64,000 nt of DNA. It comes from Bacteroidales bacterium (GTDB taxonomy: Bacteria > Bacteroidota > Bacteroidia > Bacteroidales > VadinHA17). The notes under the pieces were generated by a model. The model made no database searches and was not told the origin of the DNA. It saw only the letters and a program-made list of their open reading frames with translations. Positions 57,715 through 64,000 of the stretch are shown here, one piece after another (positions within the stretch are counted from its first letter, which is position 1; every line of letters begins with the position of its first letter). Where the stretch lies: the NCBI GenBank assembly GCA_050014255.1, contig JBEKDR010000002.1:267-64266 (forward strand), written 5' to 3'. The position numbers were made by a program, and so were the translations under genes.

Positions 57715-57731
57715 GGATGTGAGTCAGACCT

Positions 57732-57816
57732 CCTATGATCCCCCAAAGGGGGGATAAATTTTGGTCAGTTGTGGTTGGGATCTGAACCCCCTATGATCCC
57801 CCCAAGGGGGGATAAA
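57732..57816. repeat. Direct repeat of a hairpin unit (cctatgatccccc-aaa-ggggggataaa), two copies, upstream of the DUF559 gene
   Basis: Copies at about 57732-57758 and 57790-57816. Each contains the palindrome gatccccc..gggggatc-like. Confidence 0.7.
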
Positions 57817-57844: not shown

Positions 57845-58243
57845 ATGGGTTACTACGGAAACAGGGAAATAGTTAGAAGAGCCAGGGTATTAAGGAGTAA
57901 TATGACCAGGGCAGAAATAATTCTTTGGTCCAGGTTGAGATCAAAAAAGATTAATGGTTACAAATTCAGACGACAACAGCCACTTTTTGATTATATCGTA
58001 GATTTTTATTGTGATAAGCTTAAGCTAATTATTGAAGTTGATGGAGAGATACATTCTTTTTCAGAAAGAGCAAATTACGATTCGAAACGTGACAACATAC
58101 TTAAGATCAATGGATATCATATTATCCGGCTATCCAATTTAGAAATTGAAACCGAAATCAATTCAGCGATTAATAAGATAATCTTATATATTTCTGAGAA
58201 TTTGTCCCCCTCCCAGGGGGACCACAGGGGGTTAAACATATGA
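57845..58243 (+). CDS. DUF559 (Vsr/very-short-patch-repair-like) endonuclease-domain protein
   Basis: Family pattern RARVLRSNMTRAEIILWSRLRSKKINGYKFRRQQPLFDYIVDFYCDKLKLIIEVDGEIH...RDNILKINGYHIIRLSN. The last 13 codons come from the 33-nt repeat. Confidence 0.8.
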   Translation: MGYYGNREIVRRARVLRSNMTRAEIILWSRLRSKKINGYKFRRQQPLFDYIVDFYCDKLKLIIEVDGEIHSFSERANYDSKRDNILKINGYHIIRLSNLEIETEINSAINKIILYISENLSPSQGDHRGLNI

Positions 58244-58297
58244 AAAACAACATAGAAGAGGCGGATTTGTCCCCCTCCCAGGGGGACCACAGGGGGT
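58200..58297. repeat. Perfect 33-nt direct repeat (atttgtccccctcccagggggaccacagggggt), two copies separated by 32 nt
   Basis: Copies at 58200-58232 and 58265-58297 are identical. Each contains the hairpin gtccccc-tccca-gggggac. The spacer holds the DUF559 stop and the ispG ATG (ATGA overlap). Confidence 0.9.
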
Positions 58298-60158: not shown

Positions 60159-62294
60159 CTAATTATCTGCCAATCGGTAATCGAGCTGTTTCTTCTGAAG
60201 ATCAGCCTTTACGACTTCAATATTGATCCGGTCTCCAAGAGTGTAGATTTTACCCGTTGAACGTCCTTTTATACAGTAATTCTCTTCATCATATTCATAG
60301 AAATCATCTGCAAGCTCACGGATATGGATCATCCCTTCACATTGATTTTCAACAATCTCTACATAGATTCCCCATTCCGTAACTCCCGAGATGACTCCTT
60401 CAAATACCTTCCCGGTCTTATCGCTCATATACTCAACCTGTTTATATTTGACTGAGGCCCTTTCTGCCTCAGCAGCCAGCCTTTCCATTTTTGATGAGTG
60501 GTTGCACAGTTTTTCGTACTTATCCTGGCTGCCAGGATTTTCTTCAGCAAGATAAGCAGACATAAGCCTGTGTACCATCATATCGGGATAACGTCTTATG
60601 GGTGAGGTAAAATGTGTATAATATTTAAATGAAAGTCCGTAATGACCGATGTTGTCTGTTGAGTAGATAGCCTTTGCCATCGACCGGAGAGCAAGTGTTT
60701 CAATAATATTTTGCTCCTTTTTCCCTGTGACTGAATTCAAAAGCTTATTCATTGCTTTTGGAAGCGATGTATGATCATCCTCAATCAGCTTATAACCAAA
60801 ACGGGTAATGAAATGGCTGAAGTTGCTTATCTTCTCCGGATCAGGTTTATCATGAATACGGTAGACAAAAGTTTTTCCCCGTCGCTTTTTCCCGACATAT
60901 TCCGCAACCCGCTTATTTGCCAGAAGCATGAATTCCTCAATAAGCTGGTTAGCTGTACCCATCTCGCGGAATTTTATCCCGAGTGGTTTTCCTGATTCAT
61001 CAAGTTCAAACCTCACTTCAATCTTCTCAAAAGCAAAAGCACCTGACGCAAATCTTTTTGCCCTGAGTTGCTGTGCCAGACGGTGAAGTAAAAGGACCTG
61101 TTCCTTCATATCGCCTTCTCCGGTATCAATCACCTGCTGAGCTTCATTGTATGAGAATCTTTTATCGGAATTGATAATTGTTCTTCCAAACCATTCATCA
61201 ATTACTTCAGATTTATCATTCAGTTCAAAAACAGCTGAATATGTAAGTTTATCTTCAGAAGGGTTGAGTGAACAGATATGATTTGAAAGTCTTTCAGGGA
61301 GCATTGGTACAACCCTGTCAACCAGGTAAATTGATGTGGCTCTCTGCTTAGCTTCCTCTTCAACTAAGGAATCCATTTTCACATAATGGGTCACATCAGC
61401 AATATGAACCCCTATTTCCCAGTTGCCATTTTCCAGCTGTTTGAGAGAAAGGGCATCATCAAAATCCTGAGCATCGACCGGATCGATCGTAAAAGTTGGT
61501 ATTTTGCGGAAATCGCGACGAACCTTAATATCATTCTCAGTGATCTCTCCCTGAATTTTTTCAGCATCGGCTACGACCTCTTCAGTAAATTTATAAGGAA
61601 GTTCAAACTCTGCAAGAATGGCATGCATCTCTGTTTCGTGAAGGCCAGGATAACCAAGAACATTAATGATCTCCGCTACAGGATTTTTTGATTTAGGATC
61701 CCAGTCGACCACCTTTGCAACAGCTTTTTGCCCCTGTTTTGCACCATTTAGTTTTGATGTCGGGATGAACAGGTCAAATGGCATGTTCTTATTATCTGGA
61801 ATAAGAAATGCAAAGTTGGGCATGATTTCAACTGTGCCTACAAATGAAGTCCTCCATCTTTCAATGATCTCCACGACTTCGCCCTCGGGTCTGGCTCCTT
61901 TCCTCTTCGCATAAAGCCATACTTTAACTTTGTCACCGTGAAGAGCTGTTTTCAAGTTTTTAGCCGTGACAAATACATCGTCATCAAGATCGTCGGTTGA
62001 GATGAATCCGTATCCCATCCTCGTCATGTCGACTGTACCGGTGATATACCCGCGCGCTACCTTGACTTTGTATTTACCATGATATATTTCCTGTAGGCTT
62101 CCCTGTTTAGCAAGATCTCCCAGGATATCTGATATCATCTGCCTTCCGGGAGCATCAGTAATATTCAATCGTTTGGCGATCTGTTTATAATTAAACCCCT
62201 GTTCGGGGGTTTTTGTCAATGTTGCAAGTATTTGTCCGATAAGTGATTCCCTTGAAATGCCGGAATCTCTTTTGTCCCTTCCCTTCTTACTCAT
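60159..62294 (-). CDS. rnr: Ribonuclease R
   Basis: 711 aa. RNB catalytic domain (TIDPVDAQDFDDALS) and a C-terminal S1 domain. Confidence 0.95.
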   Translation of the reverse strand: MSKKGRDKRDSGISRESLIGQILATLTKTPEQGFNYKQIAKRLNITDAPGRQMISDILGDLAKQGSLQEIYHGKYKVKVARGYITGTVDMTRMGYGFISTDDLDDDVFVTAKNLKTALHGDKVKVWLYAKRKGARPEGEVVEIIERWRTSFVGTVEIMPNFAFLIPDNKNMPFDLFIPTSKLNGAKQGQKAVAKVVDWDPKSKNPVAEIINVLGYPGLHETEMHAILAEFELPYKFTEEVVADAEKIQGEITENDIKVRRDFRKIPTFTIDPVDAQDFDDALSLKQLENGNWEIGVHIADVTHYVKMDSLVEEEAKQRATSIYLVDRVVPMLPERLSNHICSLNPSEDKLTYSAVFELNDKSEVIDEWFGRTIINSDKRFSYNEAQQVIDTGEGDMKEQVLLLHRLAQQLRAKRFASGAFAFEKIEVRFELDESGKPLGIKFREMGTANQLIEEFMLLANKRVAEYVGKKRRGKTFVYRIHDKPDPEKISNFSHFITRFGYKLIEDDHTSLPKAMNKLLNSVTGKKEQNIIETLALRSMAKAIYSTDNIGHYGLSFKYYTHFTSPIRRYPDMMVHRLMSAYLAEENPGSQDKYEKLCNHSSKMERLAAEAERASVKYKQVEYMSDKTGKVFEGVISGVTEWGIYVEIVENQCEGMIHIRELADDFYEYDEENYCIKGRSTGKIYTLGDRINIEVVKADLQKKQLDYRLADN

Positions 62295-62338: not shown

Positions 62339-62346
62339 TACATTTG
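62339..62346 (+). promoter_or_regulatory. -7 promoter box (TACATTTG) for the PqqD-like / kinase / peptidase unit
   Basis: Exact TAnnTTTG match 19 nt upstream of the ATG at 62365. It overlaps the ORF-track TTG start at 62344. Confidence 0.45.
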
Positions 62347-62364
62347 GTCGATAATTGGAAAGCA

Positions 62365-62649
62365 ATGACCGGTTTGAAATCGATACTTTCACAATCTGCT
62401 TCAGTTGTTACCCGGAAAACCGGAAATGAATATGTGCTTGTGCCCATCACAAACAACATAGCAGATATGAACAGCGTTTATACTCTGAATGAGACAGGTG
62501 CTTTCATATGGGAACAAATTGACGGGAAAAGAAGTATTGAAGATATAATCATTGAATTGGTGAATGAGTATGATATTGATAAACAAAATGCGGAATCTGA
62601 TGTTTATACTTTTATTGAAAATATGAGTAAATATTTGATTGTCCATTAA
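62365..62649 (+). CDS. PqqD-family protein (RiPP recognition element / peptide chaperone-like)
   Basis: About 94 aa. The pattern EYVLVPI...VYTLNETGAFIWEQIDGKRSIEDIIIELVNEYDID...AESDVYTFIENM matches the PqqD winged-helix family. Confidence 0.7.
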   Translation: MTGLKSILSQSASVVTRKTGNEYVLVPITNNIADMNSVYTLNETGAFIWEQIDGKRSIEDIIIELVNEYDIDKQNAESDVYTFIENMSKYLIVH

Positions 62650-62722
62650 TTATATGGTTCTGTATTAATGCTATTTATGCCACCAAGGCACAAAGGATTC
62701 CATAGAAAATACTCGGTAAAAT

Positions 62723-63610
62723 ATGAGGAAATATAATTTAAATATTGCGGGATATAACATTGGGTTTGAGGCTGTAGCAAACGGGCCCGAACTTAAGCCC
62801 TCCTCAAGATTCCTCAGAAACATCAATCCGAATATCGGTTCCGATATTCTTATCCGGGTCCATTCAGAACCCTTTAATCTGCCAAAAGGAGCCGAAAGAG
62901 TTTTCCGCGCTCCATACGTTGAAGAGATAAATGGCATCCAGTTCAATAATGAGACTAACTTCTGGAGTGTCTGGAAATATCGCTCTGAGCTCTATATCTG
63001 GACAATCTTTCCGCTCTCTGCCTCAGAGAAAAATGCAGTACTGAAATTCTCGCTTACATCAAGGGAATGGGACCTTTGGATTTATGGTTCACAGAATGAG
63101 ACAGATCCTTTTGAGTATCCCCTCGATGGACTGATACTATATTATATGACAGTTATAAATGGGGATATAATGATCCATGCATCGGGAATTAACATTGCAG
63201 GACACGGTTATATTTTCAGCGGAGTATCCGGAAAAGGGAAATCAACAATGGCAAAGCTCTGGGATAATTCAGGAGCGAAAGTAATCCACGACGACAGGCT
63301 TATCTTAAGAAATAACGGAAACGGTTACAAAATGTTTAATACACCGGTTTATAATAATGATGAACCTCGTGAATCAATCCTCAACAAGATCTTCATTATT
63401 GAACATGGCAATGAAAATATGCTGGTCCCATTAAAAGGAGCCAATGCTGTGACCCAGGTACTGGCTAACTGCATCCAGCATAACTGGAGTGCTGACATTA
63501 TTGCCCGGCTTCTTGGTTCAATTTCGATTATGTGCGGTACGATACCAACATCAAAGCTTTATTTCAAACCCGACAGAAGTGTAATTGACCTTATCCTTGA
63601 CAATGAATAA
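62723..63610 (+). CDS. HPr-kinase-C-terminal-domain-like P-loop kinase (HprK-related)
   Basis: IHASGINIAGHGYIFSGVSGKGKSTMAKL matches the HprK/P C-terminal domain signature (HAS...G.SG.GKS). There is no HprK N-terminal domain. Confidence 0.65.
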   Translation: MRKYNLNIAGYNIGFEAVANGPELKPSSRFLRNINPNIGSDILIRVHSEPFNLPKGAERVFRAPYVEEINGIQFNNETNFWSVWKYRSELYIWTIFPLSASEKNAVLKFSLTSREWDLWIYGSQNETDPFEYPLDGLILYYMTVINGDIMIHASGINIAGHGYIFSGVSGKGKSTMAKLWDNSGAKVIHDDRLILRNNGNGYKMFNTPVYNNDEPRESILNKIFIIEHGNENMLVPLKGANAVTQVLANCIQHNWSADIIARLLGSISIMCGTIPTSKLYFKPDRSVIDLILDNE

Positions 63611-64000
63611 TTGGCGGAACAATCATGCGGTTGTGAAAGATATCAGTCTTACTCTACTCACCGAAGGAAAAACCATCAGGATCAAAGCTCATGGATATAG
63701 CATGTATCCTTCTATTAAACCCGGTTCTCTGATACTGATCGAACCATTGAATATCAAGGGGATGCCCCGTCCCGGAGAGATTATTGCAATTCGGAGAGAG
63801 AGCGGACTTATTGTCCACCGTCTTTCTAAAATAATAAACAAGAATGGCATTGCATTCTATATCGCAAGAGGAGATAGTAATGCATACGCCGATAACCCGG
63901 TTAGGATCGATAAAATAGCAGGAAGGATTGTGCGGGCTGAATCAACCGGGGAAAACCCCGTTCCTGCTGATATCAGGATTAATACAAAACCAAATTATTT
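63603..64000 (+). CDS. S24/S26-family serine peptidase (signal peptidase I / LexA-like), 3' end outside the window
   Basis: An open frame not listed in the ORF track (no stop before the window end). The ATG at 63603 overlaps the kinase gene by 8 nt. Motifs are GYSMYPSIKPGSLILIE (nucleophile Ser) and ARGDSNAYADNP (GDN-type box). Confidence 0.6.
   Translation, partial: MNNWRNNHAVVKDISLTLLTEGKTIRIKAHGYSMYPSIKPGSLILIEPLNIKGMPRPGEIIAIRRESGLIVHRLSKIINKNGIAFYIARGDSNAYADNPVRIDKIAGRIVRAESTGENPVPADIRINTKPNY

Follow-up and report, generated by a model that had tools for sequence, protein, structure and literature searches.

The end of a 64,000-nt stretch of DNA from a Bacteroidales bacterium (positions 267-64,266 of contig JBEKDR010000002.1, assembly GCA_050014255.1; the whole stretch is referred to here as the window) contains, from position 62339 to 64000, the promoter and the first three genes of a five-gene Bacteroidota operon. 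The operon encodes a PqqD-family protein, a kinase-like protein of the ScmC family, a serine peptidase of the S24/S26 clan (S24) and, past the window, an ATP-binding cassette (ABC) exporter and a nucleotidyltransferase of the NTP_transf_5 family (NTP5). We propose, with a probability of about 60%, that this cassette is a pathway derived from those of lasso peptides that would mature and export a linear modified peptide, a reading based on comparative genomics and on analogy with characterized clusters. The cassette is not a lasso cluster, as it has neither a cyclase nor a B2 protease nor a local precursor, and its product cannot be a lasso.

An initial annotation of the window had described a promoter box followed by three same-strand genes, and both the box and the genes are found where it placed them. 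The features of the operon within the window are the following:

62339-62346, forward strand: promoter box TACATTTG, a Bacteroidetes-type -7 element that fits TAnnTTTG, 26 nt before the ATG of the PqqD gene
62365-62649, forward strand: PqqD-family gene, 94 aa, first gene of the operon, called on the contig too
62723-63610, forward strand: ScmC-family (PF27840) gene, 295 aa, with a beta-rich N-terminal domain followed by a P-loop domain of HprK/PEPCK fold
63176-63298, forward strand: predicted active-site segment of the kinase-like protein, from motif and conservation
63176-63178, forward strand: His152, predicted active site of the kinase-like protein
63221-63247, forward strand: P-loop G167-V-S-G-K-G-K-S-T175, predicted active site of the kinase-like protein
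63287-63298, forward strand: His189-Asp-Asp-Arg192, predicted active site of the kinase-like protein
63603-64000 and beyond, forward strand: gene of the S24/S26-clan serine peptidase, closest to Sec11/SipW, 149 aa in all
63699-63701, forward strand: Ser33 in G-Y-S-M-Y-P, predicted catalytic residue of the peptidase
63816-63818, forward strand: His72 in V-H-R-L, predicted catalytic residue of the peptidase
63870-63875, forward strand: Gly90-Asp91, predicted catalytic residues of the peptidase

Related loci carry labels beginning with L. L001 is a peat-metagenome contig of 89 kb within which the window lies (add 52722 to an L001 coordinate to obtain the window coordinate), and it encodes exactly the same 295-aa ScmC-family protein.

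Proteins of the operon

The first protein, annotated initially as a PqqD-family member of some 94 aa, matches Pfam PqqD (PF05402) with 68.2 bits against a cut-off of 23.4 (E = 7.7e-19, profile positions 1-63 of 67), which confirms the assignment. In NCBIfam it is matched best by the lasso PqqD chaperone model (E = 5.7e-13, under the cut-off), and the ScmD model of the same collection gives 39.3 bits against a cut-off of 100 (E = 5.5e-10). The gene is present in nearly all related loci. The protein is likely to be a leader-peptide recognition element (RRE).

The 295-aa protein carries the motif IHASG...GVSGKGKST...IHDDR, and had been presented as a protein with the HprK signature. The motif and the HprK/PEPCK fold stand, whereas the Pfam Hpr_kinase_C profile falls below its threshold (16 bits versus 33.3, E = 0.009, with 51 residues covered). 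The NCBIfam models HprK_rel_B (E = 8e-9), ScmC (28.1 bits versus 125, E = 1.2e-6) and HprK_rel_A (17.6 bits versus 200) also score under their cut-offs; a precomputed match to the Pfam family ScmC, PF27840, covers this exact protein and nearly all its homologues. The AlphaFold model has a pLDDT (predicted local distance difference test) of 88.8, with PEPCK (1oen, E = 2.5e-5) and Lactobacillus casei HprK/P (1kkm, E = 6.6e-5) as top Foldseek matches, and a profile search matched structure 1jb1 (E = 0.003). Profile and fold searches were needed here, since a single-sequence search of the PDB returned no meaningful match. In 35 homologues, which reach down to 35% identity, no change is seen at H152, G167, S169, G170, G172, K173, T/S175 or H189-D190-D191-R192; among 28 distant representatives the first Asp of the pair is at least 90% conserved and the second is invariant, like the His and the P-loop. 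Assignment to the HprK superfamily is thus founded on motif, fold and ScmC family and not on the Hpr_kinase_C match, and the protein is a putative peptide Ser/Thr kinase. The family is large: a library clustered at 50% identity contains 5,408 of its representatives with a threshold of E <= 1e-3 and 1,491 with one of E <= 1e-10.

The peptidase gene starts 8 nt before the end of the preceding one (63603-63610) and runs out of the window, as noted initially; on the contig its last 17 codons lie outside and it ends 52 nt past the window. The protein scores 27.9 bits with Pfam Peptidase_S24 (cut-off 23.3). With NCBIfam TIGR02228, the archaeal and endoplasmic reticulum-type signal peptidase I, it exceeds the cut-off of 51.85 by a narrow margin, giving 53.7 bits for the part inside the window and 53.3 for the full length, and it matches the model of the nickel superoxide dismutase (NiSOD) maturation protease more weakly. 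Profile searches hence place PqqD (Pfam) and Peptidase_S24 above cut-off and Hpr_kinase_C below it. A single-sequence PDB search gave no meaningful match for the peptidase; its profile matches human SEC11C (7p2q, E = 4e-5), and the AlphaFold model (pLDDT 75) retrieves SEC11C as top Foldseek match, followed by C-domains of LexA. In the model the N-terminal helix, residues 3-20, is polar and of low confidence. The peptidase had been classed as a Ser-Lys enzyme of the LexA/signal-peptidase type, of which the S24/S26 clan is retained and the Lys is not: from its sequence the general base is predicted to be His72, as in Sec11/SipW, in place of the Lys that LexA and bacterial signal peptidase I use. 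In 63 peptidase domains, of which 28 are standalone and 35 form part of ABC exporters, there is no variation at G31, S33, M34, P36, H72 or R73; G90 and D91 are kept in 62, with one gap. The catalytic residues are invariant as well in 23 fusions of the kinase-like protein with the peptidase. The enzyme is a putative leader peptidase.

Beyond the peptidase gene the contig encodes a 595-aa MsbA-like ABC exporter, whose only domains are ABC_membrane and ABC_tran, with no C39 domain, and then the 390-aa nucleotidyltransferase (Pfam NTP_transf_5, E = 4e-44), in which residues K113, G114, D132 and D134 are invariant. The expectation that the remainder of the system lay downstream of the window was therefore right as far as the exporter and the nucleotidyltransferase are concerned; neither a lasso cyclase, nor a B2 protease, nor a precursor-like small open reading frame (ORF) appeared in the extended contig. 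No Asn-synthetase-like cyclase is encoded within 10 kb on either side of the operon on the contig, no radical SAM (S-adenosylmethionine) gene on the contig, and no Pfam family of the transglutaminase-like B2 protease is listed on this or the related contigs. The idea that an S24/S26 peptidase takes the place of B2 agrees with this result.

The promoter box deserves some caution if considered in isolation, given that TAnnTTTG occurs 76 times in the window versus 63 +/- 8 expected from shuffled sequences, so the bare motif is not significant. However, 67 of 76 related loci have a TAnnTTTG box 24-30 nt 5' of the PqqD start, among them loci with differing upstream flanks. This conserved position indicates that TACATTTG behaves as a real Bacteroidetes -7 promoter element.

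Conservation and rearrangement of the cassette

Conservation was analysed in two sets of loci. A genome scan, with one genome per species, yielded 80 loci, nearly all of them labelled as Bacteroidales or Rikenellaceae metagenome-assembled genomes from fen, peat, sediment, digester and other samples. A second set of 80 loci, L092-L171, was found in metagenomes with a 7-sequence alignment. The genome loci share the order CysS-IspG-RNaseR(-)-PqqD-ScmC-S24-ABC-(NTP5)-(HTH), where HTH is a helix-turn-helix protein, with the identity of the kinase-like protein going down to 50%, and the start-stop overlap of ScmC and S24 is kept in most of them. In the window the upstream neighbour of the operon is:

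60159-62294, reverse strand: RNase R gene, divergent from the operon

Among the 52 loci with enough flanking sequence, all five genes are found in 36, NTP5 is absent in 15 and S24 in 2. The co-occurrence of PqqD, kinase-like protein and peptidase is consequently confirmed, together with ABC and NTP5, in the Bacteroidales loci. Other gene orders exist. In a sister Bacteroidales clade, ABC-NTP5 is upstream of cysS while PqqD and a fused ScmC::S24 follow rnr; L087 has the order NTP5-PqqD-ScmC-S24-ABC; and cassettes of other order occur also across the metagenome set. Conservation with ABC and NTP5 in 80 Bacteroidales loci, and the reordered cassettes elsewhere, argue that the trio is not a chance neighbourhood.

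The peptidase is found in three architectures: on its own, which is the form in the window, at the C-terminus of the kinase-like protein, in ScmC::S24 fusion proteins of 430-577 aa, or at the N-terminus of the exporter, in ABC proteins of about 745 aa encoded in 35 of the 80 metagenome loci. Its catalytic Ser and His are invariant in all forms, and D91 in all but one gapped sequence. Since the kinase-like protein is naturally fused to the peptidase, and the peptidase to the exporter, the three proteins belong to one process.

The fusions also bear on the view that the operon is a degenerate remnant of a phosphorylated lasso cluster that lost its cyclase, B2 protease and precursor. The PqqD protein, best matched by the lasso B1 chaperone, the HprK-like kinase, the nucleotidyltransferase and the ABC exporter do form the accessory set of the paeninodin, pseudomycoidin and Bsf clusters. 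Nevertheless, a lasso cyclase is absent from the 80 syntenic loci and from the recurrent neighbours of the 80 metagenome loci, and in none of more than 160 related loci is a cyclase-like or transglutaminase-like gene recurrent, whereas S24 is nearly always present, even fused to its partners, a stable alternative architecture and not decay. Already largely refuted, this explanation is hardly tenable.

In L090 the cassette additionally encodes a radical SAM enzyme, and its precursor, rich in Cys, has a leader of the same type; L090 and L091, where the radical SAM gene sits between PqqD and ScmC, are the only such variants. They recall the SynChlorMet (SCM) cassette, which combines ScmC and ScmD with two radical SAM proteins, ScmE and ScmF. 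Conceivably, the operon could be part of an SCM-type pathway, with its radical SAM partner and precursor encoded elsewhere and the ScmC-like protein acting as a non-kinase accessory. Besides the L090 and L091 arrangement, the Pfam family ScmC and the weak NCBIfam matches to ScmC and ScmD point in that direction. These two scores are nonetheless far under the equivalog cut-offs, a radical SAM gene is absent from the Bacteroidales loci and from the recurrent neighbours of the 80 metagenome loci, the precursors described below mostly lack Cys, and the P-loop, His and Asp-Asp are invariant as in an active phosphotransferase. An SCM-type pathway is very unlikely.

All three genes are matched in part, at 88-99% identity, by contigs from four peat or soil metatranscriptome runs, assembled from relatives; one contig bridges the ScmC/S24 junction (63492-63642). 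A tblastn search against plasmids gave no useful match. The cassette was not described in the literature tested for PqqD with signal peptidase and HPr kinase, or for PqqD with S24, Bacteroidetes and RiPP (peptide made by the ribosome and modified after translation), nor was a curated family found that describes it. Literature on SynChlorMet/ScmC contained only unrelated acronyms, and that on PF14907 a single unrelated paper.

Precursor peptides and proposed pathway

In many metagenome loci a small ORF lies directly 5' of PqqD. A profile constructed from 20 of these ORFs retrieved 58 in 41 loci, one to five genes per locus with up to five tandem copies, usually placed just upstream of PqqD and encoding peptides of 25-88 aa. 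Pfam and NCBIfam contain no model for them; public records label them as hypothetical protein, leave them unnamed or, in one case, give an evidently erroneous insulinase-like peptidase, and one related exporter is labelled there as Paludibacter sp. The leader motif, K-[KR]-x-Y-x-x-P-x-[IVL], is of lasso type. In lasso leaders, YxxPxL at positions -17 to -12 is recognized by B1 proteins (PMC10368454).

When 54 unique peptides were aligned, with positions counted from the Tyr, this residue and Pro(+3) were invariant and [IVL](+5) nearly so, with Lys/Arg at -3 and usually at -2. The peptides share a further conserved motif, D-x-E-I-S; Asp(+11) occurs in 53 of the 54, Ile(+14) and Ser/Thr(+15) in 49 each, and Ser/Thr(+20) in all. 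Long precursors (47-88 aa) continue after Ser(+20) with a Pro-rich stretch and a tail N-D-P-F-K or N-P-L-K-W-F-K, whereas short ones (25-30 aa; L130 and L132) end at Ser(+20) or at most 2 residues from it. Beside most cassettes the precursors lack Cys, and the candidate substrates lack a hydrophobic core like that of signal peptides.

Taking into account that: (i) relatives of the operon have precursors with YxxPx[IVL] leaders; (ii) the trio is conserved, and (iii) its members are found fused, the suggestion of a non-canonical RiPP maturation system in the initial annotation gains support, here with a lasso ancestry and no precursor in cis, and we propose the following pathway. The PqqD chaperone would bind the leader motif of the small precursor, and the kinase-like protein would phosphorylate Ser/Thr(+20), or possibly Ser(+15). 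In an optional step, NTP5 might add a sugar or a nucleotide to the phosphate. The Ser/His peptidase would then remove the leader at the exporter, and the ABC protein would secrete the linear product; no ring would be formed, there being no cyclase. We infer all the biochemical steps by analogy with three systems. In the Bsf system, phosphorylation of core Ser3, that is, Tyr+19, by the HprK-type kinase BsfK depends on the RRE protein BsfB1 (PMC10368454). PsmK phosphorylates Ser, and PsmN, an uncharacterized nucleotidyltransferase, adds a hexose to the phosphate; PsmK D158A/D159A, mutated at the predicted metal-binding site, and PsmN D134A/D136A are inactive (PMC6993621). We assume that D158 and D159 of PsmK would be the equivalents of Asp190 and Asp191.

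Several observations weigh against this proposal. Hpr_kinase_C and all the NCBIfam kinase models score under their cut-offs, so that motif and fold are the grounds for assuming kinase activity. What is proposed for the sites of phosphorylation and cleavage and for the chemistry of NTP5 is drawn from analogies, and PsmN is a putative member of PF14907. Pro follows Ser(+20) in 13 of the 54 precursors, which disfavours a cut of signal-peptidase type at that bond. NTP5 and S24 are missing from the 15 and 2 close loci already mentioned, and the cassette of the window lineage occupies a fixed chromosomal site among housekeeping genes, which is unusual for a natural-product cluster. Coming from relatives, the metatranscriptome contigs may moreover contain DNA. 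Finally, profile, regular-expression and relaxed-pattern searches detected no member of the precursor family in the window or in L001-L089. Neither such a precursor nor an alternative conserved small ORF lies in the 64-kb window, in the roughly 10 kb that follow it, or in as much as 10 kb of flank at 85 related Bacteroidales loci.

Four candidates for a local precursor were considered and rejected. Clustering of the small ORFs downstream of the operon returned only the HTH gene and GG-leader peptides: the 69-aa ORF after NTP5 is the helix-turn-helix protein, and the GG-leader peptides are part of a separate locus with a C39 exporter. An ORF in the PqqD-ScmC gap of some relatives is a 129-aa GxxExxY-like selfish gene, and a 3.6-kb insert between ScmC and S24 in L076 and L079 is a restriction-modification system. 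The GxxExxY-like insertions are found between PqqD and ScmC in L005, L007, L018, L022, L031, L036, L037 and L048, where some flanks encode 'PPRHQGTK'-like repeats. In L060 (9565-10887), PqqD is frameshifted into two pieces and ScmC is disrupted N-terminally, by an assembly error or by decay of the operon. The precursor of the window operon is presumably encoded elsewhere in the genome.

A different explanation for the missing precursor is that the cassette of the window lineage is an orphan, whose precursors were lost while the operon is kept for peptide export or detoxification, or is decaying. It would account for the absence of a precursor within reach, the losses of NTP5 and S24, the insertion of selfish genes and a restriction-modification system into the operon of some relatives, and the broken PqqD and truncated ScmC of L060. 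Against it, the ORFs are intact and the catalytic residues invariant across 80 species-level genomes at 50-92% identity, the promoter box and the translational coupling are conserved, and transcript fragments are present in peat metatranscriptomes. Furthermore, of 25 long metagenome loci, 18 have at least one precursor and 7 are orphan, with no alternative small ORF in the orphan cassettes; precursors encoded in trans may hence be normal. The orphan explanation has a small chance of being correct.

The genes next to the precursors suggest another role for the product. In about 30 metagenome loci the precursor gene directly follows a 700-2300-aa cargo gene of the type IX secretion system (T9SS) with a Por_Secre_tail domain, and pairs of cargo and peptide form repeated modules 5' of the PqqD operon (e.g. 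L095, L106, L112, L117, L125, L156 and L162). In another subfamily (L139/L152 type) the precursor adjoins a CPBP protease. The T9SS cargo link of the precursor genes may concern the physiological role of the peptide. Hence, the cassette might serve a cell-biological purpose, for example making or trimming a peptide that acts as partner, signal or cofactor for T9SS cargo, or acting on a protein substrate, with a housekeeping function in the window lineage, where the operon is fixed among cysS, ispG, rnr and metH, is vertically inherited and has no precursor in cis. On the other hand, other subfamilies hold precursors without a T9SS cargo, namely L130, where five copies stand in tandem, L132 and the L139/L152 type beside the CPBP protease; the RRE, the leader motif and the dedicated exporter are hallmarks of RiPPs, and no T9SS-tail protein is encoded in the window. 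A cell-biological purpose, which we regard as unlikely, is compatible with the same enzymology and concerns the role of the product only.

The maturation and export of a linear modified peptide is therefore the reading that we retain. A broader proposal, to which we give somewhat less than even odds, is that the cassettes represent an undescribed class of linear phosphorylated, mostly decorated Bacteroidota RiPPs, made by lasso-derived enzymes, with the leader removed by a Sec11-like peptidase often located in the ABC exporter, and maybe tied to the T9SS; such an exporter would be a novel leader-cleaving type alongside the C39 PCATs (peptidase-containing ABC transporters). RiPP classes are sorted by a class-defining enzyme, and mining finds lasso clusters through the cyclase and B2, so this cassette would presumably be missed; its genes are now mostly labelled 'hypothetical protein'. 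It is common, judging from the 1,491 kinase-like representatives at the stricter threshold, and is fixed in a Bacteroidales lineage of peat, fen and sediment. Only a handful of phosphorylated RiPPs were listed in 2025, none of them similar to the cassette (PMC12639078). If the proposed chemistry is true, the cassette would provide a new class of phosphorylated linear peptides, the first role of a Sec11-like peptidase as RiPP leader protease, and a second, independent solution for coupling leader cleavage to ABC export. The T9SS cargo link could point to a physiological rather than an antibiotic role.

Other features were observed around the operon. On the contig, after NTP5 come the 69-aa HTH gene, then a transposase, and then a GG-leader bacteriocin locus of its own in convergent orientation. 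The 69-aa HTH protein (L001 14614-14823) directly follows the operon in 39 related loci and might be a regulator; it is paralogous to a 114-aa HTH protein encoded in the bacteriocin locus. The bacteriocin locus (L001 17564-20888, about 3.6-6.9 kb past the window) encodes a C39-peptidase ABC exporter, the 114-aa HTH protein, a CPBP/Rce1-like protease and two GG-leader peptides, one of 51 aa and the other of 56 aa. Between this locus and the operon lies a DDE transposase (L001 15857-17389), and similar loci follow the operon in several relatives. Rfam and tRNA scans 3' of the operon were empty. In the variable spacer just 5' of the called ABC exporter start, and in frame with it, a KERKERKER stretch (L001 11349-11380) is encoded by an apparent 9-nt tandem repeat. 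Upstream, a DUF559 gene (57845-58243) is bracketed by direct repeats of 31-33 nt that have hairpin cores CCCCC...GGGGG and form two pairs (window 57728-57816 and 58200-58297). Both DUF559, at its end, and IspG, at its start, include one of the repeats in translation (LSPSQGDHRG twice), and the whole looks like a small mobile or insertion-associated element.

Comparison with known systems

The closest parallels are the phosphorylated lasso clusters of paeninodin (pade), pseudomycoidin (psm) and Bradymonas bsf, which share with the cassette a discrete PqqD-type RRE, an HprK-superfamily kinase, the nucleotidyltransferase N and the ABC exporter D (PMC6993621, PMC10368454, PMC8498205). The cassette would function most like the part of these pathways that does the tailoring and the export, combined with another protease. 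The leader motif YxxPx[L/I/V] is common to these clusters and to the cassette precursors, and the kinase target in bsf, a Ser about 19 residues after the Tyr, compares with the invariant Ser/Thr at 20. Unlike the lasso clusters, the cassette has no cyclase and no B2 cysteine protease, with a Sec11/SipW-like serine peptidase instead, and its precursors differ by the D-x-E-I-S motif, the Pro-rich middle and the N-D-P-F-K/N-P-L-K-W-F-K tail, or by a stop after the Ser.

Sec11 and SipW of the S26B group and the NiSOD maturation protease, a cytoplasmic S26 enzyme, have in common with the cassette peptidase the elements G-x-S-M-x-P, x-H-R-x and G-D. From Sec11/SipW the cassette enzyme differs in its small size of 149 aa, in having no evident hydrophobic N-terminal anchor and in its context, an operon for peptide modification. 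Coupling of leader removal to export is known from the PCATs, which serve bacteriocins with double-glycine leaders, and in 35 related loci the S24 domain takes the position that C39 has in them. The cassette, however, uses a Ser/His enzyme of clan SF and not a C39 cysteine peptidase, its leaders have no GG, and the peptidase of the window is a separate protein.

The SCM cassette also pairs a PqqD homologue with an ScmC-family protein. In contrast to it, the present cassette has no radical SAM protein and scores under the equivalog cut-offs, and its peptidase, exporter and nucleotidyltransferase fall outside the SCM definition.

Similar in composition is the HPr-rel-A system (TIGR04352 and TIGR04353), a computationally defined NCBIfam set with a PqqD chaperone, an ScmC-family kinase and an adjacent NTP_transf_5, also without a lasso cyclase. 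An instance from Sphingomonas, L172 (7334-9871 of JBELLZ010000020.1), encodes PqqD_rel_X and HprK-related kinase A, then NTP_transf_5, with a 134-aa protein upstream. Its proteins score 242.9 bits with HprK_rel_A and 56.6 bits with PqqD_rel_X, a model that is not among the matches of the window protein. L172 differs from the cassette in having neither an S24 peptidase nor an ABC exporter in the operon, and in its 134-aa unassigned partner. By these scores the cassette does not belong to the HPr-rel-A equivalogs. Since the triad of PqqD, ScmC-family kinase and NTP_transf_5 is found also in this cyclase-free system, it would represent an older common core, shared by the cassette of the window.

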